A DNA stretch of 64,000 nt from Amphiscolops sp. MND2022. Its lineage: Eukaryota. Within the stretch, counting starts at the first letter, position 1; each line of letters opens with the position of its first letter. The notes beneath the pieces are model-generated. The model saw nothing but the letters and a program-made list of their open reading frames with translations. It was not told where the DNA came from and did no database searches. Below are positions 3,542 to 36,700 of this stretch, in pieces. The translations under genes and the position numbers were made by a program. The stretch covers positions 31,374,001 through 31,438,000 of the forward strand of contig OZ076409.1 in the NCBI GenBank assembly GCA_964187785.1, read 5' to 3'.

Positions 3542-3730
3542 ATGGTCTCTGAAATGGATAAACGATTGCTAGGGCTAATACAGGGTTTGGACCTGAATAA
3601 CTACCCATTTGATGATGATTCAACTATTCCTGCTGACAAACTGGAGAAGTTGAAATCTTGTCATTGGCTCAACCTCAAGCGGAATGGATTGCGAAAAGTA
3701 CCAGCGGCTGTTTGTAATCTCATGGAACTT
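3542..3730 (+). CDS. FLII: FLII coding exon 1 (LRR)
   Basis: ATG at 3542, MVSEMDKRLLGLIQGLDLNNY...VCNLMEL, donor gtaagt at 3731, phase 0. Confidence 0.88.
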
Positions 3731-12700: not shown

Positions 12701-15700
12701 GACTATGTAAGAGTTCCTGATAAACGCAATTTCTATAGTAAAGGTTATACAACAAATTGGAATAGAGAACTTTTTAAAATACATAAAATTAATCCAACTA
12801 ACCCAGTTACTCATGGTTTAGTAGATGAAAACAACGAACAAATAGAAGGAAAATATTATGAACAAGAACTTTTTAAGAAGTATATTCAACTTTAAATCTA
12901 ACAACAAAACGTTAGAAAGTATGAATATTTTCCATCGTTATGAGTAATTTTATTTAAATAAATAATGTCAATACATAAATTTGGTTATAGTGCCGAGAGC
13001 CTACAAAAAGATAAGATTGAGAATCTTGAAAAAGAATTGGAATCACAAACCAAATTATTCGACTTAAAACTGAATGATATGCAAAGCACCATAAATGGTA
13101 TGACTGATAACCTACAAAATACCGAAGGCGCCTTGCGTGTACAAGAAATTAATTTTGATGATGGTGAAACCAAGGTAGTAGTCAATGCAAAGTTATTCTT
13201 AGACATAAACAAAATTATAGAAGACTTGAAAATCAACCTGAAATACTTAGAACAAGATGTTAAAAATAAATTTTTAGAAAAGAAAAAAGAAATAATTTTG
13301 GATGCTGCCAAGTTAGTGGAAGAACAACAAACCATTTTACGTAATCATTTTGAGAGAAACCTTATTTCGGAATTGGAAAAATGTAAAAATTAAACCATCA
13401 TAGATGTTATACAACTATTGTACAACAAAGGATTGTTTGACTCATTTGAAAACAAAGACCAAATCTTTAATGAGTACTCATATTTTAGTGATGAATACTT
13501 GTTGGAAAAATACGGAAAAGAAATAAAGACATCAGATGGTGTGTATTATTTATCAGACTTAGACTATTCAACGAGAGAAGATATCGTGAAGTGCTTGAAA
13601 AGAGATGAATACAACGATATAGTTGACCTTAAATATAGAATGAAACTAACCGATACTGAGATTAATTTTATACTTTTTGAAAAATGAATACTTGTAATAA
13701 AATTGTAAAATTTAAACTAAATACTTTATAAAATTAAGTTTTTATTTAAAATTAAATGAGTGAAAAATTGTAGCCATGTTTACAACAAGATCAGAATCTT
13801 GATCTTAGATTAAAAGAAATGAATAGTTTTAATAATTCAATTCAAAATATTAAAGATATTCAAAATTTTTATAATCATGAAGCTAAAAAGTATTTTAAAA
13901 AATGTAAAATATACAAGCTTATAAATTGTTTAATTCAATCTATCGATGGAGTTTCAGTACTAGCAGTATCATCAACATGTGTCACGTTGAGTGTCACAGG
14001 AGTTGGACTTGTTGTTGTACCTATAGCAAGTGGTATAGGTGCAGGTTTATGTATAGTCAGTAAAATTGCTGATGAGTACCTGAAAAGAAAAGAACAACAC
14101 AATATTAAAAAATATACTCTTGCTGGTAGAACACTACACGACTACCAAAAACTACATTCAAAATGTTTAGAAGACAATAAAATCGATCTGAATAAATACA
14201 ACAAAGTAAAACAAACTTACGATACATATGAAACAAATAAAACTAAACTAAATTCTGAGTTTACTTTTTTAGGTTAACCCTTTTTAGTAAAAATAAAATA
14301 AGTATAAATTTTAAATCATGATTTTTTTATAAAATAAATGGAGTTATTTTCATTGAAAAATAAATATGCTATGGATAAACCTATTCATAAAATTGATTTT
14401 ATTAAATACTCACCTAGTAGTTTAGCTACAATTAATAATAGTAATTCAAATATTTCCATAATTTTCCCAAGAGAAGATGCATATATATGTTTACAAAACT
14501 CATACATATCATTAGAATTTGAAGTTCTCAAAAATGATGATAAAAGATATGCAGATGGTGATCAAATAAGCTTGGTCAACTTTGGACCCGTTGCTTTATT
14601 TAGTGAAGCTAAACTTGTAACATCATCCGGCAAACATCTAGAGAAAGTTGATGACCTACACCCGGTATGTTTAATGCATAAACTTTTAACAAGTACCCAA
14701 CAAAAAAGTCAATTGATGTACGGATTTGAAGAATCACAAGCAACTAGAAGACAAGAACTAACAACAAACAAAACAGAAAAAGGAACCTTTTTTGTTAGAA
14801 TAAAATTAACTAATATATTTGGATTTGCTGATCAAGAAAAAATAACTTATGGATTGGGTTACAGTCTCACGTTAAAACGTAATAATAATACTGATAGTAT
14901 CATCAGGGACAATGGTGTAGATGCTGCAAAAATAAATATAAAAGACATCTCCTGGTATATTCCACACTACACACCATCAATGGAAAACCAACAACTCGTG
15001 ATGGATCAAATATTAGACAAAGATCCAACTGAATTATATTACATGGAACGGATTGTATTTAGAAAAGATGTTGACACGAATAATAATTGGACATTTGAAT
15101 TAGGCAGCAGTGGAGAATCGACACCAAGTTTTATAATTGTTTGATTTCAAGCTAGAAATAAAGTTGATTCACAAACACATGATACTGCAATATTTGATCG
15201 TTTACCTGTTTCAAATGCAGTTTGTAAAATAGGATCAGAAAAATATCCCGACGATGGAATAGAATGTGATTATGATAGAGACAAATATGATCAAGCATAC
15301 AGTGAAATTGAAAACTTTTATTTGTTAAAAAGTGAAACTAACCTACTCAATTCATTTATTGATTTGCATAAATTCAGGACAAATTATAATTTCTATGTAT
15401 TTGATTTATCCAAACAAAAAGATAATATTGCGAGTCAACCTATTAGATTAGAATTTAAATTTAATGCTGCCATTGATGTAGCAGATTATATAGCTTATGC
15501 CCTAGTCCTAACACCCAAGCTGATAAGTATCAGTAGTGATGGACAAAGGCATTTTGATTTATTATAAATAAATATAATTTAATTATATAAATTTAAAAAA
15601 ATATAATAATACAGCTTTGCTGATATGATAAATAAATTTATAAAATAATATATTTATTTTTATAAAATGATAATAATTATAAAATGATATAATAAATAAA

Positions 15701-18700
15701 TTAATAAAATAATTTATTTGTTTTTATAAAACATGTGCTCGATCACTTATCAACTTCACAAGTTGTTGATGGTTGAGTGCTTGTTTCCAATACCAAACAC
15801 TCCAATATATTTCTTCATCTGTTTTCTTGCTACCGTCAACATTTATAGTTGAATCTTTATAATACAAACCAATTAATTTCAAACAATATATACAAGGACA
15901 ATCACCTTTCTGGGTGTGTTTATCCCATGGTAAACTTTGTATTGGATTTATATACAAACGTTTATCGTCAAAAGGATTCAAACACAACTTAGGTTGTTTT
16001 TCAACTGTAAGGTTGTGTAAATTAGATCTAATTGATATATTTGTAGAACTTGATGTTTCTGAATTAAACAATGAATTCTGATATTCTTCACATTTGGGAG
16101 CTTTTTGTATTCCTTTTTGTTTCGCTTTTTGAATGTTATTATTATTATTATAACTAAAAGAATATGACTTTGATCGCAATGCTGTGAAGGTATCTAACAC
16201 CAAAACTGGACTTGTTTCAATTTTCATTTTTCCTATAACTTTTTTGTTAATAGGATTATATAATTCTTTAGATTTATCTAATTCACTGAAATCAAATTCA
16301 TCTTTGTTTTCTTGTAAAAAGTTTATTAGTTCTTGGTGGTTAGCATTAAAACTAAGAATGAAAGAATCAGTATCCATGTAGTGTAGTTGTACTTTGTTTT
16401 GCCAATATGGTTCTAAAGTATGATAATAAAATTCATACATTAATAGTTTACTTAATTCTAACACAGAGAACCCCAAATAAATTGGTTTATCAAAGACTGT
16501 TTTTTTTCTTTATCAAACTTGTACACACTAAACTTAGAATAATGATCCATGATTCCTTTGAAACTTAACTTGGATTGTCTTTTTATTATTTGATCTATTT
16601 GAGAATGATCAATGAATTCTAGATTGGTTCTATCTCTTGCATTTTCCATTGTCTTACCAAAAAAAGCATTGTTCATTAATTTGTACAGGTCTTTTTCAAA
16701 GTTTGTTTTTGCTTTGGTGCGTTTCTGAGTATTAGGATCAATGTATTTTGCTAACCATGCACTTTGCTTGAACCGGTAGATTGTATGTATCTTCGTTACT
16801 TTCATCCCTTGGTTAAGATAAAACTTAAACATCCTATAATGTATCATATATTTCGATTTATTGGTTACATCACACATAAGTTTTGATGTTGGTTTGTAAT
16901 TAGGTTGATTTACATTATTCATATAAGCTGAGAATAAGTCTGGATCTGCTTTTGTTTGATACGGACAAAAAGGAGTTTTTTCTTTAATTTCAACAGGATA
17001 TTCTAAATCACATTCTATAAAGTAACCAAATTCATTATTGTCTTGGCAATGAGTCAAATCTTCTACTGTTTGTTCTAGTATATACTCTTCTGGTAGTTGT
17101 AGTTTTTCGAATTCAATTGTAGGAAGGTATTGACTCATTGCCCATCCATATAGATTATTTGCATCAATGTATAAGATTTGTTTATTTTCATCAGATTGCA
17201 CATGCCTATTACCCATAACACTTGAAATTCCTCCACGTATATTGTTTTCTAAAAGTAATAATAATTCTTTACATTTAATATAATCTAATTTAATATTAGT
17301 TAACTTTAAACCTGCTTTCCATGTATAACCAGGTAGCGAATAGGAGTATAAAGGATTAATTTTATATTCTCGTGTAGAACTTTCCACAAAGTTTTCAAAT
17401 ACATCAGTTAATTGAAGAACATCCATTTTTAAATATAACATTGTTAATTCTCTTCCATTTTTAATTTCATTTTTATCAATTAATTCTTGGGTTCTTTTTA
17501 TATCATCATCTGATGGATAAGATTGTGTTAATGTTTACCAATAATCTTCTTTGGTTAGATTAAGTGGTTTGTCAAAATTATCCAAGTTAAAATATTCATA
17601 TGGATAAGCTAACTTCTTCTTAAATAATTTATCTATAAATCCATTTTCATCCATTATTGGTAAGCTGTCTAAACTCTTAACTAATTTATCTAAACTACTA
17701 CTTAGAAAACGGTATGAATCTAAAAATCTCAAACAACCTACTTGAATTGATACATAATTTTCCATTGACTTTGGGATTATTTTTGGTTCATACCCCTTTT
17801 CGAAAGCTTGTATTAAGAGTTCTTGAAATATAAGATGACAATCATACCCAGAAAAGTTATGGAAAAATATAGGAACAAAACTTGATTACCTTTGCTGGCT
17901 TTGTATGTTACATATATTATGAGCTGCTCCTCTGTATTTTCCTGTTAGATGATCATGATCTCTAACCTTAGTATCATCGAGTGGATTTTCACAAAGCCAA
18001 CACTCTTCTGCTTGTTCAAATTGTACTTCTTCTTCTTGACTCATTTCTAATTCTAAATTTGTTTTAAACTATTTTGATGCAATTTTTTCTAAAGTAAACA
18101 TTTTATTTACAAACCATTTAGTACAGCTTTGCTGCCCTCCGGTACAATCTGTTCCAAATTATGAATAATACTTGCTTTCAAATGGTGCAATTATATAATA
18201 TCCTACTGCAATTGGAATTTGTTTAAATAATACTTTGGGGTCTTTTTGAGGTTGATTAATACATTCAAAATCTGCATATACTCTTCTTGGTACAGGAACT
18301 TTCATATAATAATCTTCGAACTTTAACTGATTCTTCCAACTGAATGTGATATTGGTTGGTTGTTGATTTATACATCTTTCTACGTGGTTGTTTAGAACAT
18401 CGTTTGAATAAAATGCAGTAAAACATCTACAAACATGTTTCATGTGTGAATCTTTATTCAATAAACAATGTAACTTTGTAATTAAACAATAGTGATTTTT
18501 ATATAACATTAAATCAATTTGTGGTTGTTTGTAATTTTCGTTAATATAAATTGGTGTTAAAACATTTCCAGTGAGTTCAAATACATTTATACCATGACCT
18601 CTGATATTCAATTTATTAAGGTTTTCAAATTTGGGAATGTCTTTGACTTTCATAGGGAATTCCAATCCTTTTAGGTTGAGTTTATTCTCATGCATTAAAT

Positions 18701-21700
18701 ATTTTGATATTCTATCTTTATGATCCTCAACAGGATATAAATATGCTAGGATACACCATAAAAAACAATATTGATCGTTATTTTTTTAAATTTATATTTG
18801 ATTTACTATCCTTATATTTTCCTGGTAACTCAATGTATGAAGATGCTTGAATATCTCTAACTATATATTTCTAATATAACTTCTTCTACTTCTTGAAATT
18901 GAAAACCTGATCCTTCTAATTGTTCATCTATTTTCTGCATGAATTTGTTATGAATTTCTTGTTGCGTACTATTGTTATATATTAAATCTGATTTTATCCA
19001 CCTTTTAAATACTTCTTCTCCATTGACTATTTTTGAAAATTTAGCTAGATAACTCAATTGATATTTATATCGGGGAAAATAATTTTTACTAAGTAATTCA
19101 TTTGTTATGTTCAAGATTTTCAGTTGGATTTTTCAATTTCATGTATGTATTTTCACTCATAATTATATTTACTCCATTACCGAAATCTGTAATACAGCTT
19201 CGCTGGCTTTGCATACCGTTTTGTTGACGGTTTTGTAAATGAATTTCACTTTGGAAATGTCTTGTTTTATCTGTTATATATTTACCACATTCTTCACACC
19301 ATACTTTTTTATTTTTATGTTCATCTGAATTTGAATGAGAACTTTTATCTGAGATATTCATATATAAATTACATGAGTTACAATAATATTGCCCCAATTT
19401 TTCTTGATGTTTTACTGATTTATAATGAGAGGATTTGAAAACTTTTTTATAATATAAACCACAATTATTACAATATTCCATTTCTATTTATTAAAGAAAA
19501 AATAGTTTAATTAAAAATTTTTCAATAAATATTTTTCAAAAATTAGTGAAAAATATTTTGAATTTCTTACCTGTGGGTTCAAGGTGCGAAAATTTGTCAG
19601 AGAGAAAAGTTGTTCATACCGGAGGTGCTTTGTATATTCTGGATGTCTACATTTTTATTCCCCTGACTTTTTACGTTAGAACAAACCAGTCTTGAGAAAA
19701 ATGGAAAAAAACCATTTTTCACACCTGTTTTCTCACCTGGTAATTAGTGGGTTGATTTTAGAAAAAACCCGCAGATACAAAATGTGTGTAACCTTTGATT
19801 ATCTACAAGTTTTGTTTCTGGCGTTTTTCTCTAGAATGATTTCCCATTGAGATATTAAACAAAATATGAATTCCCATGTATTAAGATTAGAAACCAAAAT
19901 TCAAACCAAAACCAAAACTCAAATAATTTCAGAAATTATCAGAATTTCCGATTTGGTTTGAATGCTTTGATCTACTTTCATGTGTTTGTCAACTAAGTGA
20001 CACTTCACTGCAATTCAATTTCATGCCACATGGTTCTCGAGTGTGAAATGTCAATTTGTCTTCACTGCACACTTCACTGCAAAAATGAATTGAATTGCAC
20101 ATGTTACACTTTTCATTTCTTCCATTTTCTGTACACAATTTTACATTACACTTATTACTACTGTAGAGGTTAGTGAATTTTTCTTTTATAACAAAAATTT
20201 CACTGGAACAATTTGTTATTTGATTTTTATTTTGTTAATTTTTTAGTTGCGAAAAAAGGTTAATTTTTAATGATTTACCTTGAAAATGTTATTTTTTAAC
20301 AGTTAGTTGTGAAAAAAACGTTAATTTTAGATACAGCTTCGCTGGCGTTTTGCGTGATTTACCTTGAAAATATGTTATTTTTTAATAATTTTTATTACGG
20401 AAAAAAACGTTAATTTTAGATGATTTTGGTTTTTTTGATGTTATTTTTTATTTTTTTCTATGGGCGTATTTCGGGAAATAGCCTACTACTGCCATTAGAA
20501 GTAGTGTGGCATTTAGTGTTAGTTCAAGTCAGCTTATAAAGCTTATGAAATCTCTCACTTTGTTGGTCTTAAAAAATAAAAGTCACTACTATAGTCTGCG
20601 TTTTTCTACGAAAAAGCGCCGACTAAAAAGTGGGTCTAAAGCAATTCCGTACAGCTGTGACCTACACCGATAGCGCGCACGAATATGCCTCGCCCCTCCG
20701 CAGCTGCCACCGTGTACCTCTACTGTCCTTACAAGGAGCAGCAACTCACTGCGACCGCTCAGGTCCTCATAACGATCACTTATGATCTTCCATCTCATCC
20801 TATAGATCCTTCAAGACTCAACCAACTGGATGGGTTGCAAATGGCTGACCTGATGTTTCACACTCCTGGTCCGATTAATCTCCTTATTGGTATTGATCTT
20901 TATGAATCAATTGTTCTTTCTAACAAGATTCACCCTTAACCCAAGATTTATGCTCGGATTCTCAGCGGTACACTCAACCCCAAGCTGTTTCGATCAGGCT
21001 ACTTATCTACAACCTTCAACTCTCGCTCTGAGCAATTACTTCACATGGCTCTACTCAACCTCAACTGATGTTTCCTCTGTCGATCAGCTTCTGACTCGCT
21101 CCTGGGAAATTGAGGATGTCTCTGGTTTTGAGTCCAAGCAATTCACCCCTGAAGAGCAGCAATATGATGACTTTTCCACTCAGATGACGTCTAGGACAGC
21201 TGAGCTGATGGGCACTACGAAGTTGAATTTCAACTCAGAATTACTTTTCAACTCAGATGCACCTCCAATTGGTGAAAGCTTCAATCAGGCGACGGGAAGC
21301 TTTCTGGCGCTGGAGACGACTCCAGTCTACCGATAGCAAACAAGACTACACTGACTACATCAAGGGGTACAAGGATGCTGCTCACATGGAACGGGACCCA
21401 ACTGAAGATCTCGATAAACCACATCATCACGTTTTCTACCTTCCCACCACAATGTGATGAGGGATAGCTCAACTCACAAGGTCAACATCAAGCTGGTTTT
21501 TGATGGCTCCGCGAAGTCCTCATCTGGCTGGTCATTTTTCTCAAAATAACTTACCTGACATTTTGCTTAGGTTTGAATTTCACTCAATAGCTCTTTCTGC
21601 TGATGTGAAAAAGATGTACCTTCGAGTGGGTTTGACGATTGCTAGCAGGGACTAACATCAACTTCTCTGGCGCGATCATTCTGGCCAATTGATTGAAGTT

Positions 21701-24700
21701 TGATGCATGACTTGGGTCACCTTTGCCTTTCCATCTTCTGCCCATCATGCAGTCAAAGCTCTACGCTCGGTCGCCAACGATCATCATCGCCCATCAGCAA
21801 GCACAGTGATCCTGCGTGATTTTGTGGTAGATGACATGATCTCTGAGACATCCTCAGTCGAAGAAGCTGTTGAACTTCGAGAAGCTCTGCTGCGAACTCT
21901 GGAATCAGCTGGCTTCTGCCTCCGCAAGTGGTCTACCAATATCTCCGCAGCCATTCAGCACCTACCTGCTGACCTCCAGGAAGCATCAAAAGCGTACGAA
22001 TTCAACGAAGTTCTTTCCAAACGAAGTATTCTATGGCTCCCTCTACAAAATGTTTTCACCTTCGCCTCGAGCTTTCCAGTGCAGTCCTAGCCGCCAAGGT
22101 GATGCACTCGACCACCCTGGCTCTCACGAAGCTCAACATTAAATATCTCTTGTGTGATGGTCTGAGCAGGCTCAACAATTGTTGTCTTGGTTAGCGAGTT
22201 ATCCAGGATTTTGGGGTTTTTTTGTTGCTAACGCGTGTCTCATTCAGGAACAGATACCTCCATCGCACTGGAAGCATGTCCCTTCAGAGAAAGACCCTGT
22301 CGGTTGTGGCAACAGTTCTTCTGGATTGCAGCTTGTGGTGAAAGGGTCCGATCTGGCTGGCCTGTAATCAGTCACATTGGCCTCAACAACCTTCGATCCC
22401 AGCAGGTACCCCTCCGGAGCGACGCAAGCCTGCTTTAGGCACTTTCACGCACAAAGTTGAAGTCATCTACCGGTCATTGAAATTGAGCGTTTCTTAACAT
22501 TTGGACAGACTCCAGAGCATTGGCGTATGTGCTACGTTTCCTCGACAACTTCTGTGGTTTGGAGTTAAAACGAGGTCCATTCAACAATCGGAGCTCCTAA
22601 CACGATTCAAGCCCCTAGCTTTACACTAACCAAACGGAGTATTTTGACACAGCGTGATCTATTGCAAGCGTGCAAGCGCCAATACAGTGGTCGACTATAG
22701 AGATGGCAAACTCAGCTGTAGTTGATGGCATTTTTATTCGAAAAGCGCATCAAAGTCTCATGTGGGTCCCCAAGCGACTCAGTACGAGCTCAGACGCCAT
22801 TACTGGATTCTGGTCCTCGCAACTTACGAGTGATTCGGCAGTGCACTACCTATCGACGCTTTTTGGCTAGAGCTGAGGTTCCTCGGATGGCCGACCTACC
22901 TACAGAACGGGTTACACCAAGTCGTTCCATTACAAAAACTGGTTTAGATTTTGCTACACTTTTGATTATCGAAAGTTCCATGTCAAAGGCCACTCAAAAG
23001 ACATATGTTCTTTTTTGTGTTTCTCATTTAAAGCCATTCATATTGTGCTTGTTTCAGCACTCACTGCGTCTGCATGCATAGCTGGTCTCAAGCGCTGTGT
23101 CTCGACGAGCACTTCATAGTACCATCTACTCAGACAACGGCACGAACTTCATTGGTGCTCGAAATGAACTGACGGTACTACAGGATCTTCTCAGCCTTGG
23201 CAGCGATTCCTTTCTAACTTCCTATGCCTCAAGCCGTGGTGTCGAATGGGTCGCAGTACCGCCGAGAGCACAACACTTTGGCTGTCTCTGGGAAGCTGCA
23301 GTTAAGAGTTGCAAATTTTTCTGCGACATGCAATTGGTTGACAGGTTCTATTATTCGAGGGACTCTACACAGTACTCACAATGGTGGAGACAAACCTCAA
23401 TTTTTGTCCTATGTCTTCTGATGCCAACGACTTAGCTGCCTTGACCCGTAGTCATTTTCTAATTGGTTTTTCACTCCAATCTTTTCCTTCTTCCAAGAAT
23501 ACCCAGAAGCGTCCTGCTGAGCCTACCCTTCAAGCACGCTGGAAACTGGGTCAGTCAATCGATGATAGCTTTTGGGAGCGCTGGTGCAAGCATTATCTGT
23601 TCAACTTACAATAACGCATAAAGTGAAGAATTTTTCCGAACCCCTCGAAGTCTCTGTCCTGGTATTATCAAAAGACAGGATTCCGCCATCAATTGTCACG
23701 TGGACGCGTTCTGGACGTTTACTCCGGTAATGATGGAGTTCCACGAGTAGCTCGAATCAAGACTCCAAGCGGAATCTACAATCGCCCAGTCACCAAACTA
23801 ATCAGACTGCTACTCAATGATGAAGATTTGGCAAAGTCTGATCAATGAAGCTGTTCATCCAAAGTCTGGTTTCGTCATGACGTCTAGCCCTTTTTCATTC
23901 GCAGTATAGCTTCAATTCCTAAGCCTGGTAATTTTCAAGCGCGCACACGACAGCATCTGTCCCTATACCACCCCTCATATTTTCTTCATTAACCTGGTCT
24001 TTTTCCAAGATGGAAAGTTTCTGGAAAACTAACTTCGTCATACCCTGTATTCCTATCTTCGCTTTCCCTTTACACTGCTTCTGCGCCTTCGTTTACTTCA
24101 CTGTATCAGCGCACAGGTTTTTGATACTTTTCAGTCTCATTTAATCTATTAGGTCTCACGCCAACGGTAACCAGAAGAGGAACAAAAACCTTTTTAAGGT
24201 AACTTTTCATTAGCTTCACCCGGTGTCGTTGGTTCTACAAAATCTTTTTGGTAGCTTCATTCTATTTTGCATTGCTGACTTGCTGAACCCATGGGTTGTT
24301 GGGCTATCAAACTCGTCGTCTTTCTCGCTCTGGCTGTCCGTCTTCACCCTGTTCGAAAGCGCTTGTCTTCTGGACATCTCGGTTGTGTCGTCATCAACAG
24401 TCATTATCGAGGACTGCTCAGTTGACACAACACAATGCCCACACCCGGGAGGCAAGTGTATGACCTCGCCAGGCCTCTGTACGGAGCACATGTCACCTCG
24501 TGGAAGACGAGGCTTTACCTCTCCAGCCCAAATGATGATGCCGTTTCGTTTTCTGAGCAGACTTTGAAGATTCCGCTGTCCGCTTGCCACAAACCACAGT
24601 TTCCGTCCATGCTGTAGTTGCGACTATTCTGCTCTGGCACGAGGCGCAGATCAGCATGTCATTGGCTAAATGGCTACCCACTATTCCACATCAACTGCTC

Positions 24701-27700
24701 GTCAATAAGCTGGCATAGGGTTTTCTTGGCGCAGTCAATGTCGAAAGTAATATCGCGCAAAGTCTCAAAATCTACATCGCTAGTTCTGGGGTAACCAGCT
24801 TTCAAGTACACAGTACCCTGCAGGCACTCCCTGTCTTGATTAGCGTTGACGAACTAGAACAAACCTTCTATTGTTGACTGTCTATGTACCTAATGTCTGG
24901 GCTGCCAATCAACGCGGTTGCCTCGCTGTAGCTTCAACTTCTGCCACAGTACACCTACGGAGACAATTTACACCCTCAGCTTCACTGAATGCATTTTCCA
25001 GGACTGCAAATGCCTCAGAAATGTGGAAAATCCCTTGACTTTTCAAGGACATTTCAATCTGGAATATTTCATACTCTACAAAGTATACTGTGCATCACTG
25101 GTCCTAGGCCATGTTTAAAGTTCATTCTGACAACTTTTGGACAGATCAGTCACAGTGGGTTAACCAATTTATTGTCACTGATTTTATGAAATTATTTCTC
25201 GCTATTAGCGATGCCTTTTATGAAGCCCAATGTTACTCAATTGAAAGTCTAAAATTTCGTACTGTTTCCGAATATTGAAAAGCGTTTGTTTTTGAAATAG
25301 AAATTTTACGAAAGGTTAGTCAATGAATGATTTATGGCTAATTTTATGTATCGATGCTATGGAAATAAAGAAACATGTTCATGAACTGAAAATTTCGTTC
25401 AATCATTCGAATGTGTGCGATATCAAATATTGTTTAAATGAAGTCATCACATGTTAAATCAATATTTGTAAACATTTTTCTAGAACTTTCTGTCTATTCG
25501 TCAGCCATATTTGTGAACAATTTGCTTCTTTTGCAAAGCACTGTTCTAAATTCACTTTCATTTGTTTTCTCAAAACACATACTGATTTCATTCGTCTCTT
25601 TGAACCACGAGTGTTGAAAAAATTTTATTTCACTTCGTAACAGGTTAGTTGAACTTTCCTGTTGTGCGGTAGAGCAAAAATTTGTTGAAAAAAGTTAATT
25701 TTGAAAGGACTGCTTTTTGTTGGGTGACTGAAAAAAGTGATGAAAACGTGAACACAAATCGAGCGGGAAACTTAAAGATGTCAATGAATGAGATATGGCG
25801 AATTTTATATATCACAGCTATGAAATTGAAAGAAACATTAGGTTCTCAATATTCCAATTTTGAATACTGATCGTCCCAGTCCGACAATGTGTCAGTTATA
25901 AATTACATACCCTCTTTGTACACAAAAGTCTCTGAAAGATATTTGAAACGGAAATTGATGAGGATAATTGGCGACAACAGATATTTGACGATCTTGACTG
26001 TCGAATGTTAAACTGAGTTTTATGTGTTTTGAAGTGAATATTTGATTTACTTAAACGTTTCGCACCGTTTTGACATTGTTGAATTGTGTAAATTTGCGCA
26101 CTGTATTGACTAATTTTCAATGAAAAAAGGTTATAATCAAACTAAGGAATGCACAACCACAAAAAACAGCGGATTAAACTCATTTTCAGGATTCTGAAAA
26201 TTTTTTCGACTACTTATGCAATCGTACCTTTTTCACCCGACCTTTCAATGAAAATTTCAAATTCTCAAAAACTGTTCTTATGATTTTTGAGTCCGACAAT
26301 GTGTCAGTAATAAATTATATACCCTCTTTGTACACAAAAGTCTCTGGAAGATATTTGAAACGGAAATTGATGAGGATAATTGGCGACAACAGATATTTGA
26401 CGATCTTAACTGTCGAATGTTAAACTGAGTTTTGTGTGTTTTGAAGTGAATATTTGATTTACTTAAACGTTTCGCACCGTTTTGACATTGTTGAATTGTG
26501 TAAATTTGCGCACTGTATTGACTAATTTTCAATGAAAAAAGGTTATAATCAAACTAAGGAATGCACAACTGCAAAAAACAGCGGATTAAACTCATTTTCA
26601 GGAGTCTGAAAATTTTTTCGACTACTTATGCAATCGTACCTTTTTCTCCCGACCTTTCAATGAAAATTTCAAATTCTCAAAAACTGTCCTTATGATTTTT
26701 GAGTCCGACAATGTGTCAGTAATAAATTATATACCCTCTTTGTACACAGTCTCTGGAAGATATTTGAAACGGAAATTGATGAGGATAATTGGCGACAACA
26801 GATATTTGACGATCTTAACTGTCGAATGTTAAACTGAGTTTTATGTGTTTTGAAGTGAATATTTGATTTTCTTGAACGTTTCCGCCTCGTTTTGGCATGG
26901 TTGATTTGCCTAGATTTCCGCACTGTATTGACTAAATTTCAATTAAAAAAGGTAATCAAACTAAGGAGTACACAACCGCAGAAAGCAGCGGATTAAACTC
27001 CTTTTCAGGAGTCTGAAATTTTTTTCGACTACTTATGTAATTCTACCTTTTTCTCCTGACAGTTCAATGAAAATTGCAAATTCTCCAAAACTGTCCCTAC
27101 GATTTTTTAAAAATAAAATATGGCACAGTCATTTTTCACCCAAAGGTACTCCTGTGTGTGCAATGGCATCAAAATCATACGACTCGCCGCGGTTTCAATA
27201 CTATCCGAATTTTGGAGGTGGAAGTTCGAAAAATTTGCGCTGTATCCGATTTTTTGCGTTATATCCAAACTTTGTTGCGTTTTACGGAGGAGCAAGCGAA
27301 GGTTCGGGAACAAGCAGTTCCATTTATACCACCATGCTATATCCGTACTGTTGACGTTATATCCGAAGTATTTTGCGTTTTACTGAGGAGGAGGCGTAGG
27401 ATCGAAAAATCGCTCGCCTTTGTATCAGGACGCTGTATACGAATTTCTTGAGCGTTTTCCGAGCACGAAACGCACCCTTTGGGTGTTTTGAAACTGTGAA
27501 CTGAGCCTTTTATAAAAATGTCCCGAGCATATTTTAAAAACTTTGCGCTTTTTGAGCCTTAGGTATAGCGCCGACTTTAGACATTTCCCGTTTTGTATCA
27601 TTCAGTGTCTTTAACTCATTTTAGCTCTCTAAAACATTACTTGTATATGTTGCGAAATGTTCATTTTTTTCGGAAGTAGATTTTCTTTCAATTACTAAAT

Positions 27701-30700
27701 CCATCTACTTCAAGACAGTCTCCAATAGAACTTAGCCTAGCTATCAAAATTTGTCGATGTTTTCCAATTGAAAAATGATTGTTTGTACAGCTGATATCAC
27801 ACACATTGGAAACGTCAGTTTTTGCGAAAGTTGATAGTCATTATAATGATGTTGCTGAAGTGAATGTGAAAATTAATCAAAGTTCAAATTTGCTGCTTTT
27901 GAAAAAAAATAAAGAATGCAAAGTCAGCTGGTCATGATGATATCTTTCAGGAGTTTCTTAAGTATGCACCTAAGAAACTGGTTGTTGTGATAACGTAGTT
28001 CTTTTATGCAATTCTTGATAGAGGAAAAGAGCCCGTTTATTGGGCACTTTCAGTGTACTGCTCAATCTTTAAAAAAGGTGATAGAAAAGATATAAATAAC
28101 TACAGAGGAATATCTCTTGCAAATTGTCTAGGTAAATTGTTTACCTCTCTTCTAGCGAAGAGAATTCAAAAAGACCTAGAAAGCAGACGAGCGTTCGGAA
28201 TAGAACAAGGAGTTAGGGAAAGTATGGGGTGCACTGATCACGCTTTTGTCCTTTATACGATAGTCTCATTCTACTTAGCCCAAGGAAAAAGGCCGTTGTC
28301 ACATTCATTGACTGAGAAAGCGTTCGATCGTGAGCTTCATATACGGCTTCATATACGATTAATGGGAAAGTCCTGTCGGTCATAAAGAACCTTTATGAAA
28401 AACAAAAGCGTGTGTAAACGTTGATGGGTCTCTTACTGATGTTTTTGAATGCCGAATAGAGGTAGGCAAGGTGATAATCTATCACCTCTACTCTTCATTG
28501 TTTTTTTTGAAAGACGTCCAAGCCATTGTCTCTTCGAAGTTCACTGGCCTTCAACCTGATGTTTTAGTTCAAATTGTACAATGTATTTCGAAGCTTTTGT
28601 ACTTCTGTATGCGGATGATACACTGCTGTTAACCGAAACAGAGTGACATGCAGAAAGCAGTTGAGGCGACCTTGCAATACTGCAAGCAGAATAGAATGTG
28701 TATGAATATTGATAAAATAAAGTATATGATTTTTTTAGGGGTAAAGTACGGAAAACCGTTCCCATCCTTGCTGATGGTAAAGCACTTGAGCGTGTTGACA
28801 CATTCTGCTACTTGTGATTTGTCTTTCGGTTTAACTATACGTTTCAAACTGCTATGAAATATAACATTGATAAGATTGGTTCTACCGATCTTGATCTATG
28901 GGTGCGAAGTGTGGGGTTTCGAGTTTTCCATAGGAAGTTTCTGCGGCGTGTTTTACGTGTACGGAAGAGTGTCCCAAAAGGTATGATATATGGTGAACTA
29001 GGACGGCAAGAACCTAAATTTGTCATCTGGCTTAGAATGGCTCACTTCTGGAGAAATGTCAATATGCAACATAATTCATTTTCTTGTATACTGTTCCAGT
29101 GGATGAATAACAATAATCAGATAACAGCGTGGCACCAAAAAATAAGGCTAATTTTGATCAACTGTGGTTATAATGCTGATGCAGAATTCAAGAAGTATGT
29201 GAAAGACAGATGCAATGAACTTGCATTTCAATCGTGGCAAGTTATGGTACAACATAACTCGCTCTGTGACAACTACCGACCGTATAAACATCGATTGGAA
29301 CTTGAAACTTACTTGAACTTATTGAAGGGTCCAGCGATATGGAGAATAGTTGACTTCAGATGTGCTTTGTCAGCACACCCCGAAATTGTAATGAGATATC
29401 TAGGACTTCCGGCAGACGAATGTACTCTATGTGGGCTGCCAGGAACTCCAGATGATTACCATCTACTTTTTTGTGTAAAAAGTTTGAAAATAGACATAAG
29501 ATCCTTTTACCAGGACTTCATCACTCATTCCCGAATGTTATCAAGTATGACCAGCTGATGAATACCAATAATATAAAGCTCTTGAAAAGTCTTTCTGTTT
29601 TATGTGGTGCTATCTATGACATGCTTCTACACACTACTACTGAAACAATGTTTAGTTCTTATATTTTGTAAGCCTGCGGGCAACAATTAATAATAGAATC
29701 TTCTGCTTCTTCTTGCGAGATTTTAATAAAAAAATATTGGAGAATACTGGTTCCTCTTGATGATTACGCGAGTTTGAACCGCCTCGTTACTTTTTGGCTT
29801 ACATAGTGAGAAGTGTGAACAACAATACTCTGCTAACCAAAGAGAGTTTCTAAAGCAGAATGAACTAACAAAGCATTTGCCTTTACTTTTCGAATGTCAG
29901 GGCAAACTGGCAAAATTTACATTGAAAGATGCAAGGTTACTCCTTTGCTAAGATTGACGAAAAAGAAAAGATGACCTCAACTAAAATTTTCTCAACTATC
30001 AACGTCATTTTATTCTTCACCAAAGTTGGCTGAATATCGAGGTTTTGCTGTAGCTTTAACCGCTCTGTGAATCTCTGAAACCGTGGTCGAGGTACATGAA
30101 ATGGCTAAATTTTCGATTCGTTTAGCATTTATTGTAACCGGTTCAAAGGATTGTTTCAAACTAATTGGTGCAGTTTATTTTTTCCTTATGGTTGTGACAT
30201 CATATCAACACCATGACCTTCAAACCCACCGCAACATACGGCATTAGACAGAGAGACGTATTTACCAACAAACTCTAATTACTGTCAATTTATGTTGTAC
30301 TACATACATACCATTATTATAGTTTGAGATACTGCTGAATAGTCACTATAAAGATATTAGTCTATTTTCTAGCCTACCCATCTGTTTTTACATTAGAGAT
30401 TGAGAATACAACATGGCGCAGTAACAAGACTTATTTTACCGTAAAACCAAAATTTTAACCGACCAACTACCAATGACAACAACTAAAAACAACATACTAC
30501 TACCATATCTCGAAGATACCGGATTGGACGGGAAAAGGTTATACACACCCAAAGAATGGACCGAACGATTGCGACACTATATAAAACGAATCCACAACAT
30601 CGACATAAAACCGGCACTATCCGGAGAAACAATGCCAACAAGTAACGAATGGACAACAAAAGAACCTGAAATACGACAGGATTTCATCTGGGGAGCAGGA

Positions 30701-33700
30701 CCTTCGGCAATAGAAACAATCACTAAAGGGGAATTCAACACGGACCCCGACACCATCAACACAGAAAAACTTATCCAACTATTCAAAGACTATTATATGC
30801 CAAAACGAAACACCTACCACAGCCGAGGGGATTTCTTCTGGGCAAAACAAGAAGAAAATGAAACACCGGAAGAACACTGGCGGAAACTAGTATCATTGGA
30901 AAAGAACTGCGATTTCAAAGATATTAAACAAGAAGACCTATTAATATCAAAGTTTATCACCAGCATCACCGACAAAAAACTACGGGAAAAACTTATACGC
31001 GAAAAAACACTTGACCTAAAAACAACAATGGACCTGGTAACCCAAGACAGCTACGAAAAACGGCATCGACAATCAACGATACCACCAGCACTGGCGAAAG
31101 AAAAAGAAATAAAAGAAGAACCAATACAGAAAATACAACCACAAAACAAACAAAACCCCCAGAGAAATACCGGCGAAACATCAAAAACCAACAACTGCGG
31201 ATTCTGCGGACAAAAGAATTGGTCACCACTACACAAATGCCCGGCAAAAACGGTAGAATGCAATAACTGCCACAAAATGGGACACTTCGCAAGAGTATGC
31301 CGCAGCAAAAACAACAATACAAGAAAACAAAAGATCAATTATCTCGAAGAAACATACAATGAAGAAGACGAAAGCGAACCGGAAGAAATACAACAAATCA
31401 CACAAATTAACAGAGTATTACCGGATGAAAACGACAATTACGGGATCAAATTGAAAGTTAACGGTAGATACCAAAACTTCACCATCGACACCGGCTCTCC
31501 GGTCACAATAATGCCAAACAACCCAAAATTATACAACCCAAGAGATATCAAACCGCTCAAAGAAAGATACCAGGACGTGAACAAAAACGAAATCAAATTC
31601 CTCGGGAAAATATGGGCAGACATCGAACACAATGGAAAAACCACAAAACTACCGATATTAATCACACAAAGAGACGACATTACACCCCTATTAGGTGTAA
31701 ACTGGCTAAAACGACTACCAATTACCATTAACAAAATTTCATTGGACGAACCTACCAACCAATCAGAAAATATTTACACAAAATTCAACAAGCTATTCGA
31801 AAGCAACCATACAATCAAGAATATAGAAGTAAAGATTCAAATCAAACCAGGATGCTACCCCATACAACAAAAAGCGCGACCGGTACCATACCACCTACAG
31901 AAAGACGTGAAAAACGAACTAGACCGATTAATAAAATCCGGACACCTTGAAAGACTAGAAACAATCGAAGAAGATTGTTTCGTATCACCCGTAGTAATTA
32001 CGGTGAAAAAGGACAAAACCGTGAAAATTGCACTAGATGCACGAAAACTCAACGAAAGCTGTATAAAGAAAAGACCACACATGCCAAACATGGAGGAACT
32101 ATTAAACCAAATATCCGCCGAATTATCCAAGAATGACCACGACCCAATTTGGATATCCGTAATAGACCTCGATTACGCATACGGACAAATGAAACTAGCA
32201 CCAGAAACCAGCAGACACTGCAATTTCGCAATGACAGGCGAAACAATCAATGGATATTACCGATTCCTAAAGGGATTCTACGGTCCAGCAGATATACCAA
32301 CCATCTTTCAAGAGAAGATAGATAGAACTCTGGGACACCAAACACCAGTCTGGCTAGACGACATTATAGTCGTCACACGCGGAACAAAAGAAGAACACAC
32401 CCGAAAACTATATTCGGTACTGACCAAACTGGAAGACGAAGGATATCGGGCAAGCAAGAAAAAATCGAAGTTTTACCAAAAAGAGACGATATGGCTTGGA
32501 CACACGATATCACAAGACGGAATTAGACCAAACAAAGAGAAAACAGACGCAATAAACAAGCTAGAACCACCAACAAACACCAAGACATTAAAGTCATTCC
32601 TCGGAGCAATACAGTATTTTGCAAAATTCATACCGAACCTATCCGAAAAAACAGATAACATGAGACAACTACTCAAGAAGGGAACAAAGTGGGAATGGAC
32701 CACCGAACGAAATTCGGACTTCAACAAAATAGAAAACGAACTAACAACACTGCCCTGCCTTGCACATTACAACGGAAATAAAGAAAATATTGTAACGACC
32801 GACGCCTGCAAAACCGGCTTAGGGATAGCGCTATGGCAAAAACAAGGGAATGGAGAATTAAAACCAATAGCGTACGCCAGCCGCTACCTAAATGATGCAG
32901 AAAAGAAATATTCCATCGGCGAATTAGAGTTACTAGCCGTCGTTTGGGGTTTAGAAAGGTTCCGATTTTATCTGTACGGAAAACAAGTCCAACTATTTTC
33001 GGACCACCAAGCACTAGAACCTCTTTTAAAACGGAACAAAATGAATAAACAATACAGTGCACGGCTAACGAGATGGCTAGACAGACTAAACCACTTCGAC
33101 ATCTGTCTAAAACATACCGCCGGAAAAGAAATCAAATTCACCGATTTTATTAGCCGAAATCCAACCGAAAATCCAGAACCGGAAGAAAATTACGAAGAAG
33201 AATTTGTCATTAACGCCATCGCGCAACTAATTACGGTAAACGCCCGCATAGGACGGATTTTCAACCAATCAAATCTAATGAACACGGATAATGAAACAAA
33301 CATGCTTGGTACGCGCTCGCTAATTGACACGCGGCGTCGACAAACAAACAATAGCCATACCCACTTCAATTACCGCATAGAACAGCACTCCGCTGAAATT
33401 GATAATTCAGAAATGAATAACAACGACAACAACGCACGCTTCTTCCGAATGGACGGCCAATTACGTTACCATTGGGGAGCAGATGATGAAATTATGAACA
33501 TCATCAACAGAAGAGAAAAATCACCCGAAACTACGAATCTAGTAAAGAGAAGAATCGAACTCGCAAGGCCAGGCGCAATGAGGCCACAATGGAACAAGAA
33601 CTTGGGTAGAGAAATCTACATACCAAGAAGACCGGAGGAAGACGAGAGGAGAGAGATAAAGCGCATCGACATACAACTGAAAAGAAAAGAAAGGGAATCC

Positions 33701-36700
33701 CACATTGGCGGAGGCTATTTCCAAAACTTCGGAGATGAAATACCACAAAGGCAGCCACAAGAACAACAACAACCAACCAACAACGAGACAAATAGAGATA
33801 CGGAATCTACCACCTCCAACAACTCCGAAGACGCGGTGGCGACACACGAGCCCGGAGCCTATCCAGCAATACCGGTCCAAGAGTATAGAGACGGACCAAT
33901 AGAGGAAATTGCTGTTCACTATGTGAGAATCAACCGCATAGTTGAACAAAAAGCAAAAAGGAACAAACAACAAGAGGACAACATCAGATCAGCCGAGCTG
34001 GATTTTATGCTGGATCTGGAGACCCTAATCAAAGAAACGGTTGCCGACCCAGACCTCATCGAACTCAATTGCTGCATAGAGGACAATAACATGGAGCAGA
34101 TCCCACAGAACTACAAAACAGTGGCCAAAAAACTAACACACCGGTGGGGCATCATAATGGTCGACGACCGCATCATAATACCGAAGTCATTACGATACGC
34201 AGCCCTAAACGCCCTACATTTTGGACACCCCGGCATCAACAAGATGTGCAACGATGCGGCCATATTCTGGTGGCCGAACATGCGGGAAGATATTGAGAAA
34301 AAGTCGAAGACATGCTCAGCCTGCCTGAATGCCGGTAAGAATCTAAAATTCCAATTACCAACGACCGAGAAAACTAAGATCGAACCACCGGAAAAACCGG
34401 GAGAAGAGATTCAAATAGATTTCACCGGAAATCTACATAACAAGAAACTAACCTCCCACCCTTTTATACTAGTTGCGGTCGACAAAAACAGCCGCTGGCC
34501 GGTGGCAAAAATATGCAAAAATACAAACCACGAAACCGTAATTTCATTCCTGAATGAATACATAAATGTATACGGCGTACCAAAACGAATAAAATCAGAC
34601 AGAGGCGGCGCGTTTATATCCAAAGAATATAAAGAGTTTTGCAGGTCGCAAAACATTGACCGTAACTACGGCACAGCCAACCTACATACTGGCACCGGAT
34701 TGGTCGAACGAACCATCCAATCACTGAAGAACCTAATATTAGCCAACCTTGAAGATGACCAAAACTTACGCGAAAGCGTAAATAGAGCACTATACGTCCT
34801 ACGTTTCACGGTACACTCAGAAACTAAGAAAACCCCCTTTGAATCCCACTTTGGACGCGAACCGAGAACTAAACTACTAAACCTGAAAAACTCTGTTTTA
34901 GTGGACTCCAAAGACCTCTCAGTCTATATCACCCGGAATTCAACCGGAGAAATAACCGACCACCTGGTCATGTCAAAGAAAAAGACGGTGGAGCCCAAGT
35001 TCAGACGGGGCATGACATTCTCACAGACAAAGAAACCGACTAGTTCGGTAAGTACAAACAAATTCCAATATCCTTTCAAATTTTACGAAAAAAACTACAA
35101 GAAAGGATCACTGGAAAGCAAATTCAAAAAAAAAATCCAAACGGCCGTATCAGGAACCAAACATACGGTCACTACCGACAAGAACAAAATACTACACCGA
35201 AAACTAATCTCTAACCCACTACCTTTTCAGCAAGCAACTACAGCACCGATGAAACGAATGAACACCCGCAATAACACAGCTGACCAACCAACATGCTCAA
35301 AAACACTGGATACAACAAACAACAACGGAGCCCCTTGTATCTACAGCCGAAAAGAACCACCCAAACCCACAAGCCACGAAAGAAGTGAAGACTGGATAAA
35401 AAGAAGGGACCCACCAAGAAACAATAAAGGGCAATTTACATCCCCCAATAAAAACATGGAAACCGATCTGAACCTGAGCATCATATCGGATGACGAATTT
35501 GATTGTTATAACAAATCAGAAGGGAAGCCAATTCAGACAAACCCAGACGACGAACTGCAACTGCTCCCAAAAGAAAACAATTTAACCCCGGAACAAGGTA
35601 GATATAAAAAGAAAAACCAAACAAAACCGAAAGAACCGGTCAGAAGATCAAATAGATTACCCTTTGCAAAACAAACCGAAAAATTAGGCGGAGTACCGTA
35701 CCACACAAATAATAATCAGAAAAAATTAACCTATAATGACAATTTATTACAGGAAACAACAACGGAGACAACGGAGAGAAATGAAGAAGGAAACAACCGT
35801 CCAATGCGGAAAGACGAAGAAGAAATCCGTACAATACGGCCATACAAGATGCCACAACAAACTTTCACCGGACCACTCCGGAGGAGGGGGAATGTGACAT
35901 CATATCAACACCATGACCTTCAAACCCACCGCAACATACGGCATTAGACAGACAGACGTATTTACCAACAAACTCTAATTACTGTCAATTTATGTTGTAC
36001 TACATACATACCATTATTATAGTTTGAGATACTGCTGAATAGTCACTATAAAGATATTAGTCTATTTTCTAGCCTACCCATCTGTTTTTACATTAGAGAT
36101 TGAGAATACAACAATGGTAATGTCGACCTTAATTGAGAATCATAACGTCGAAAATTTGAGAATTTTTCAGCCATGAATCGATTTTCTCATCGAACACTCT
36201 CATTTCTGTGATAAAAAAAGATTAATAAAATTAATTTCAAAAATTTGTAGGATTTGAATGTGAGCGAGAACCCGAATTTGACAATGCCTCCAAAGCCTGC
36301 TACGGATGGCATGATTGATCCAAAAGCAGCTATCTTTTATAACATCGATTTCACAGTGGAAGGACAGCTGGCGAAACTGCGTGGGGAGCAGAAAGGCACC
36401 AGCGAGAGTGGAGGTGGCGATATGAGTCATTCTTCGTCAATGGACAACATGGGGGCTGTCAGTGGAACGTTGCGGAGACAGGGTGCGTTTTAAAAATATA
36501 TATTCTAATGTAAAATTGGGTTTAGTAAAGTGTATACTTCCTGTGCACAGGGTTTTGTCCTTCAAACGGTTGTAGTTTTTCAATAGTGGCTCGTTTTGTT
36601 TAAAATTTCATTTTGGTCATCTGTAAGTTTAGGTCGACCTATTGGACTTTGTATCAGAAACAGAACCCCTATTTGGTATTTTTCAAAAGCTTTCTCATTT

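Follow-up and report, generated by a model that had tools for sequence, protein, structure and literature searches.

An antisense JmjC oxygenase gene as an accessory gene of a BEL/Pao retrotransposon lineage

A decayed BEL/Pao element with an antisense JmjC gene

We analysed a stretch of 64,000 nucleotides (nt) from Amphiscolops sp. MND2022 (contig OZ076409.1, positions 31,374,001 to 31,438,000), referred to below as the window. A first-pass annotation, made from the letters of the window, had described a decayed minus-strand frame for a JmjC oxygenase behind the pol gene of a BEL/Pao retrotransposon. The analysis showed one decayed BEL/Pao element, divided by nested insertions, in which a broken JmjC gene lies antisense between pol and the 3' long terminal repeat (LTR). 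The features of the element are given below by position in the window.

6163 to 6857, plus strand: 5' LTR of the BEL/Pao element, with TG...CA ends
6858 to 6870, plus strand: primer-binding site (PBS) TTTGGTGCCGTGA, directly after the 5' LTR
6993 to 8880, plus strand: decayed gag and start of protease, with a DUF1759 match, broken by a small insertion at about 7814 to 8360
20627 to 23848, plus strand: decayed pol (protease, reverse transcriptase, RNase H, integrase), with the pol stop at 23846 to 23848
23849 to 24215, no strand: spacer of 367 nt between the convergent pol (sense) and JmjC (antisense) units
24145 to 24140, minus strand: ATTAAA in the spacer, conceivably a poly(A) signal
24216 to 25052, minus strand: JmjC oxygenase gene, broken copy, between pol and the 3' LTR; ATG at 25052, stop at 24218 to 24216
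Near 24854, 24674, 24659 and 24624, minus strand: four stops in the JmjC gene
Near 24913, 24878 and 24645, minus strand: three frameshifts in the JmjC gene
24658, 24608 and near 24437, minus strand: JmjC active-site motifs, namely HxD (HAD), the K motif (GRKLW) and the distal His
25059 to 25061, minus strand: splice-acceptor-like CAG, 6 nt before the JmjC ATG
25098 to 25111, plus strand: GC-rich pre-LTR motif at the position of the polypurine tract (PPT), not a purine run
25112 to 25642, plus strand: 3' LTR with TG...CA ends, 59 nt from the JmjC ATG, without block 6376-6515 of the 5' LTR
25643 to 25838, plus strand: displaced LTR block, 82% identical to 6375-6573, directly after the 3' LTR

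The intact relative P0001 (299 aa) aligned to positions 25052-24219 with 70% identity over 276 codons, and tblastn of the window with the intact relative gave E values of 2e-59 and 6e-40, by which a chance resemblance to JmjC was ruled out. The motifs were found as first described (HAD at 24658, GRKLW at 24608, and QRPGEVIHLPPG..HCV ending near 24430); they are spread over two frames, and all three iron-triad codons are retained. The ATG lies 92 nt further out than the start near 24960 that had been annotated. The open stretch 24219-24623 matched the JmjC family in Pfam with E 0.04 and 14.7 bits, below the cut-off.

The stops of pol and JmjC are 367 nt apart, in agreement with the annotated distance of about 370 bp. 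That no LTR separates the two genes was also borne out: no LTR copy lies in this interval, the segment 23849-25111 is present only once in the window, and no extra element termini flank JmjC there. The composition of JmjC was as close to that of the BEL body as had been noticed (GC content 0.486, against 0.469 in pol and 0.30-0.31 in the LTRs). JmjC carries 7 breaks in 0.83 kb (8.4/kb) and pol 31 in 3.16 kb (approximately 9.8/kb); since these rates are similar, the two genes probably decayed together after insertion. The window copy is a dead member of the BEL family. An assembly error behind the breaks was ruled out by an intact 1840-aa gypsy open reading frame (ORF) with 99.5% identical LTRs only 5 kb away, and the breaks are therefore not assembly noise.

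The direct repeats at 6163-6857 and 25112-25642, which had been reported to enclose JmjC, proved to be real LTRs; they are 92.6% identical over 529 aligned columns, with a Kimura two-parameter (K2P) distance of 0.078. The PBS is presumably of the tRNA-His type, and the read-through of the relative P0033 across the LTR end and PBS (RNIWCRD) closely resembles that of the window (RNIWCRE). The closest intact polyprotein, P0028, has 1744 aa and contains DUF1759, Asp protease, Peptidase_A17, Integrase_H2C2 and DUF5641 above the Pfam cut-offs. Its residues 33-452 are collinear with window positions 7082-8880 and residues 463-1744 with 20627-23845. Judged by this collinearity, the order gag, protease, reverse transcriptase, RNase H, integrase with Pao-specific domains is present. 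The window pol is 74.5% identical to P0028 and has 8 stops and 23 frameshifts in 1053 codons; the nearest named protein is a bee polyprotein (39%).

At the 3' end, the block that is absent from the 3' LTR (6376-6515 of the 5' LTR) reappears right after the end of that LTR at a lower identity (82%). The 3' LTR and the displaced block may perhaps represent a permuted LTR that arose by recombination with another copy. The GC-rich motif at 25098-25111 is 6 nt shorter than the motif derived for the P0071 subfamily of relatives described below.

Linkage of JmjC and pol in relatives

A search of 5.8 billion proteins returned 7 JmjC relatives among 23 candidates, of which P0001 was the best (E 7e-51). 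Linkage across the family was read from the equal sizes of public contigs bearing members of the JmjC and pol clusters. Of the 10 members in the cluster of P0001, four are intact proteins from contigs of 7688, 7282, 7019 and 6997 nt; the other six come from contigs shorter than 2 kb. The cluster of P0028 has 8 members, four of which, intact Gag-Pol proteins of 1744 aa, lie on contigs with exactly these four lengths; the remaining contigs of this cluster (5786, 772, 750 and 735 nt) are too short for both genes. On each of the contigs of 7-7.7 kb, the JmjC and Gag-Pol ORFs together leave 862-1553 nt spare. A second subfamily (pol 84% identical to P0028, JmjC approximately 75% to P0001) gave a match to a JmjC contig for 6/6 distinct pol contigs of 192-845 kb; equal size is an indirect sign of linkage, and on contigs as large as these it shows co-location and not adjacency. 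Copies of BEL without JmjC had been named as the observation that would speak against carriage; instead, every long-enough pol contig of the relatives has a size-matched JmjC. The claim that an LTR element carries a JmjC oxygenase is supported by these matches (4/4 and 6/6).

In the four 7-kb elements the pairwise distances of pol and JmjC agree (rho 0.99, 6 non-independent pairs). The divergence between the two subfamilies is 24.5% for JmjC and 14.7% for pol. A third subfamily, consisting of P0071 and P0072 (JmjC identity 52% and 43%), had no matched pol. When the N-terminal read-through of these two proteins was back-translated and reverse-complemented, it gave a motif matching the window at 25099, just before the LTR. 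This motif has 4 plus-strand matches in the 64 kb, and in the read-through a TG start comes after it, at a distance of 52 nt from the ATG, suggesting that the JmjC gene of P0071/P0072 is likewise antisense and LTR-adjacent.

We also built a tree of 30 JmjC rows, without a host JmjC outgroup. The window fragment grouped with the BEL-linked proteins (7 rows, support 100/99), and this group lay within a clade of 13 rows (99/100) that was separate from the distant relatives. Young intact copies, 97-100% alike, are present. The antisense JmjC gene is a real and conserved accessory gene in a BEL/Pao lineage, and we regard it as very probable that JmjC is a standing cargo of the family, fixed and selected, and not a one-off capture.

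A rearrangement confined to the window, with JmjC belonging to a separate element inserted in this copy or with LTRs from different insertions, can be proposed since no target-site duplication (TSD) is found, the 3' end is rearranged and two other insertions are nested in the BEL element. It is scarcely credible in view of 10 independent equal-size contig matches, the collinearity of gag and pol with one intact polyprotein, and the lack of extra termini at JmjC in the window.

The JmjC protein, its possible function and comparable systems

Searching 1.84 billion representatives with a profile yielded 28 matches, of which 16 were distant. All 10 clusters that were looked up consisted of unnamed ENA or Logan proteins, several of them multi-copy. 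In the 30-row alignment (P0001 numbering), H146 is kept in 27/28 rows, D148 in 27/28, K165 in 26/28 and H221 in 22/25; the H-D-H triad is whole in 19 of the 24 rows that span it. Position 143 holds Ser or Thr, a ligand of 2-oxoglutarate (2OG), in 28/29 rows, and both this position and K165 align with ceKDM7A and JMJD6. Since the HxD..H triad and the 2OG lysine are kept down to approximately 20-30% identity, catalysis is argued for, and the protein is likely to be an Fe/2OG enzyme as judged from its residues. P0001 and P0071, which are 52% identical (60% in the core, 42% in the N-terminal part), have both kept an intact frame, and in all comparisons with sufficient overlap conservation was higher in the core than in the N-terminal part. 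With Pfam PF02373, P0001 scored 20.7 bits, below the gathering score of 24, and 7/16 distant relatives (P0055-P0070) passed it (24.6-31.1). TRP28 (PF04195) was not found by the Pfam search of the JmjC family proteins.

The C-terminal tail is basic and resembles a nuclear localization signal (NLS): a K/R-rich tail was present in 15/15 full-ended rows examined, with 8-13 K/R in the last 30 residues. The disordered tails of P0001, P0002, P0049 and P0071 (51-75% identity to P0001) share a short acidic and Ser/Thr motif followed by a K/R cluster, which is a candidate interaction or import signal.

An AlphaFold2 model of P0001, based on the 30-sequence alignment, had a pLDDT of 76 and a pTM of 0.76, and its tail was disordered. 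Among 48161 chains compared with the model, the ten best matches were all JmjC proteins (Z 11.9-14.2, root mean square deviation (rmsd) 3.4-5.0, 193-232 residues aligned), from which the predicted fold is a JmjC-type double-stranded beta-helix (DSBH). The scores included PHF2 (Z 14.2, rmsd 4.3, 220 aligned), KDM2A (13.1), ceKDM7A (12.8), TYW5 (12.5), JMJD6 (12.0) and KDM4A (10.3). The top Foldseek match was KDM7A, and the best PDB profile match was ceKDM7A (E 0.011); the close-family profile had no match among PDB sequences. The structural check proposed with the first-pass annotation therefore confirmed the JmjC fold without giving the subfamily: JMJD5 (14.1) and FIH (13.5) score like PHF2 (14.2), and owing to these ties the PHF2/KDM2/KDM7 and JMJD5/FIH groups are not separated by fold. 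A TET/AlkB-type enzyme was rejected, as AlkB-like chains rank far lower (ALKBH7 Z 8.9). The ESM Atlas contained JmjC-type clusters at 0.90-0.94, none of them a close relative, and these serve as a lead only.

Both the KDM2/KDM7/PHF8/PHF2 and the JMJD5/JMJD6/FIH proteins share with the present family the DSBH fold, the HxD..H triad and the S/T and K ligands of 2OG. In contrast with them, the present proteins have no PHD, CXXC or JmjN domain, the sequence identity is approximately 10-14%, and neither group can be assigned.

We examined possible expression signals in the window and in distant relatives. Scanning metagenome contigs for the motif turned up 13 loci, comprising seven distant relatives (L001, L008-L013) and six loci without a relevant match (L002-L007), and the scan of viral contigs gave none; locus searches with the close-family alignment found no relative in metagenome or viral contigs. 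A pyrimidine-preceded CAG lies 6-8 nt before the ATG in 7/7 distant copies and in the window, where the background for such a site is 1.8-3.3% of ATGs; the seven copies are related to each other and hence non-independent. Because the distance between CAG and ATG varies, the CAG is not coding, and it looks like a splice or trans-splice acceptor. A donor-like GT directly follows the stop in 5/7 distant copies, and the window is without such a pattern; an antisense splice-donor scan of the LTRs gave weak candidates only. The earlier description of the gene as intronless stands for the coding region; judged from the acceptor-like CAG upstream of the ATG, the mRNA probably begins with a spliced leader.

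The seven copies form a distant JmjC subfamily from one assembly; they are 65-86% alike in DNA, several are broken, and their homology ends at the donor-like GT. Two further distant JmjC clusters are likewise multi-copy: P0056, with 5 members, lies on contigs of 9.6-14 kb, and P0065, with 10, on contigs that reach 7.5 kb, which are whole-element sizes.

Histone methylation is a means by which hosts silence transposons. CpG depletion in the element is slight (observed/expected 0.73-0.98; 2/27 LTR transitions at CpG), which weakly favours histone-based over DNA-methylation silencing in the host. The best explanation of the whole is a BEL/Pao lineage with a third, accessory gene, which is antisense, lies between integrase and the 3' LTR, is spliced and encodes a nuclear anti-silencing demethylase; as a complete statement we consider it evenly balanced between true and false. 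The product would be a stand-alone Fe(II)/2-oxoglutarate JmjC oxygenase of approximately 300 aa that has no reader domain and ends in a basic, NLS-like tail. The gene would be transcribed from an antisense promoter located in or close to the 3' LTR, splicing or trans-splicing would join the RNA to the acceptor that immediately precedes the ATG, and by virtue of the antisense orientation the splice signal would be kept out of the genomic RNA. The protein may then be imported into the nucleus through its basic tail and remove repressive histone lysine methylation of the H3K9/H3K27 type, so that silencing of the element and its relatives would be loosened in trans. Nuclear removal of H3K9/H3K27-type methylation is the most likely function, at a probability that we put just short of a half. 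We give a histone substrate roughly the same odds as its alternatives taken together, namely hydroxylation of a host protein or RNA and a regulatory role that does not involve catalysis. The anti-silencing cargo suggested earlier is kept as a hypothesis, because the fold does not separate lysine demethylases from hydroxylases. More tentatively, and with somewhat less than an even chance, the proposal may be widened to a hitherto unrecognised reader-less JmjC family of small enzymes that is a spliced antisense gene fixed in the BEL/Pao lineage (the 13-row clade, at least three subfamilies), is multi-copy and mobile elsewhere, demethylates repressive marks and derepresses transposons in trans.

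Several observations weigh against these proposals. In the second subfamily, 2/8 JmjC contigs have no pol match, and the distances of pol and JmjC are uncorrelated (rho -0.10, 15 pairs, fragmentary rows). Adjacency of the two genes in relatives is deduced from equal contig sizes, and their presumed orientation there depends on the window and one back-translation. No BEL pol was found next to the seven distant relatives (tblastn of all 13 loci, Pfam frames of 5/7, downstream flanks from <0.1 to 1.45 kb); the wider JmjC family is multi-copy and mobile-looking, though not demonstrably carried by BEL elements. A purine-rich PPT before the 3' LTR was not found in the window copy, and no TSD was recoverable in the window, where the flanks differ and the 3' end is rearranged; the missing TSD concerns the integrity of the window copy and not the BEL family. 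With regard to function, Pfam gave no PHD, CXXC, zinc finger, JmjN or other targeting module, and 299 aa leave no room for a reader. The Tyr of the KDM7 2OG pocket (Y-H-x-L-K-G-E-K) is replaced in all 28 rows (Ser 19, Ala 5, Cys 2, other 2, Tyr 0), and the Ser sits where JMJD6 has Asn. JMJD5 (rmsd 3.4, 193 aligned) and FIH tie with the demethylases in the structural comparison.

Alternatively, the gene may be a selected cargo whose product is a protein or RNA hydroxylase of the JMJD5/JMJD6/FIH/TYW5 kind; its target would then not be histones but a host factor in restriction, splicing or translation, a tRNA, or the RNA or Gag of the element. The Z-scores of JMJD5 (14.1), FIH (13.5), TYW5 (12.5) and JMJD6 (12.0), the small stand-alone size shared with these enzymes and the Ser in place of Tyr in the 2OG pocket are in keeping with it; the basic tail could bind RNA, and the orchid Gypsy precedent works on RNA (PMC9289625). 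More residues align, however, with PHF2/KDM2/KDM7 (217-232, including the N-terminal part of the model) than with JMJD5 (193), and the top Foldseek and profile matches are KDM7, in both cases by a small margin. We regard a hydroxylase as unlikely, yet far from negligible.

A selected cargo could also act mainly without catalysis or through antisense transcription, as a nuclear regulator of the LTR comparable to HTLV-1 HBZ, the antisense protein of maize Grande or fission-yeast Epe1. JmjC proteins are reportedly able to act non-enzymatically, and the convergent pol and JmjC units lie 367 nt apart. Position and orientation are the same as those of the Retand/Grande antisense ORFs, for which a regulatory role is proposed (PMC11963269). 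The retention of the metal triad and the 2OG lysine to approximately 20-30% identity nevertheless argues for catalysis and makes this alternative quite improbable. Finally, a JmjC exon of the host or of another transposon could have been transduced once and merely carried along. The splice signals that flank the ORF in the distant relatives (acceptor 7/7, donor-like GT 5/7) are as expected of a captured exon, and the distant relatives are without BEL pol nearby (short flanks). Many copies are broken, which would fit a passenger and is also expected of old insertions, in which pol is equally broken. On the other hand, intact frames and core-biased conservation persist across subfamilies that are 23-48% diverged, which a neutral ORF would not survive, and a passenger is therefore very improbable.

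An accessory ORF in an LTR element is known; the surprise is in the JmjC enzyme class. The present element shares with the Belpaoviridae (BEL/Pao) the LTRs, the PBS, a single gag-pol with DUF1759, Peptidase_A17 and DUF5641, and a size of approximately 7 kb. The extra genes in a BEL/Pao survey are env-like, with 0 mentions of JmjC or antisense genes in its accessible text (PMC3118150), whereas the gene described here is an antisense JmjC oxygenase. Antisense ORFs of Retand, Grande and RIRE2 likewise lie between pol and the 3' LTR and are kept in most members (PMC11963269); here 10/10 long-enough pol contigs are size-matched. The Grande antisense product is nuclear (PMC11963269) and reportedly has its own promoter. 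These ORFs and HTLV-1 HBZ encode TRP28 or bZIP-type non-enzymes (PMC11963269), unlike the enzyme active site found here.

The Ty3/Gypsy elements of Phalaenopsis are likewise LTR elements with a fixed 2OG/Fe(II) oxygenase ORF, interpreted as counter-defence (PMC9289625). They are plant Ogre/Tat gypsy elements of 25 kb with an AlkB m6A demethylase whose RNA substrate is shown (PMC9289625), in contrast with the animal-type BEL element, JmjC domain and antisense orientation of the present case. Endogenised giant viruses of Amoebidium also provide a reader-less JmjC on a genomic parasite, proposed to counter H3K9me3 (PMC11244446). Those genes belong to a DNA virus and are multi-exon and clearly KDM4-derived (PMC11244446), whereas we find a retroelement and a divergent family to which no host parent can be assigned: the structural identity is 9-14%, and KDM4A (Z 10.3) ranks below PHF2 and JMJD5. 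A JmjC-bearing LTR retrotransposon was not found in the full-text literature searched, most subscription papers and Repbase being outside the search, and the portions seen of three main texts contain no JmjC in transposons (PMC6431247, PMC2938197, PMC3597677).

Few element-encoded counter-measures against silencing are known, namely VANC in plants, the RNA demethylase of the orchid Gypsy elements and the KDM4-like genes of giant viruses. VANC of the Arabidopsis VANDAL elements is said to be a transposon-encoded anti-silencing factor; the element is reportedly a DNA transposon and the factor a sequence-specific DNA-binding protein, not a JmjC enzyme. If the preferred explanation of a nuclear demethylase is true, an LTR family of animal type that was active until recently would possess an enzymatic counter-defence, and this in a group credited with no genes beyond gag, pol and, in some cases, env. 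Since young intact copies exist, the escape of a retrotransposon from chromatin silencing in animals is testable with one small protein. Even with a non-histone substrate, the JmjC cargo would point to a step of host restriction which the element has been selected to modify.

Nested insertions and neighbouring elements

Collinearity with P0028 stops after residue 452, at 8880, and is taken up again with residue 463, at 20627; the intervening DNA is as follows.

8903 to 20625, no strand: nested insertion of 11.7 kb that splits the polyprotein, consisting of a small repeat element with an AT-rich Polinton-like block inside it; approximate ends

The Polinton-like block (9186-20490, GC 0.28) contains matches to A32 ATPase, integrase (rve), double-jelly-roll capsid and pPolB, and a perfect 60-bp direct repeat (9126-9185 and 20490-20549) forms its borders, in place of inverted repeats. 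The segments 7814-8360 and 8903-20625 are two insertions of one small repeat family; they share short motifs at their starts and ends, and these motifs are in part inverted copies of one another. Relatives of this family, which we take to be Helentron/DINE-like, lie at 1254-1333, 55492-55933 and 59093-59506.

The gypsy-like element at 30193-36113 is young and intact, with 221-bp LTRs that are 99.5% identical, a 5-bp TSD, one 1840-aa ORF and a strong A-rich skew. A spliced host gene with leucine-rich repeats (LRR) at 3400-6045 on the plus strand ends just before the 5' LTR; its PDB matches are generic LRR proteins, we take it to resemble flightless-I, and no further LRR exons were seen downstream of it. 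The region 39927-47071 is made up of large duplications, inverted as well as direct, that are nested and 93-99% identical; it contains pPolB-like fragments and is possibly a rearranged second Polinton.

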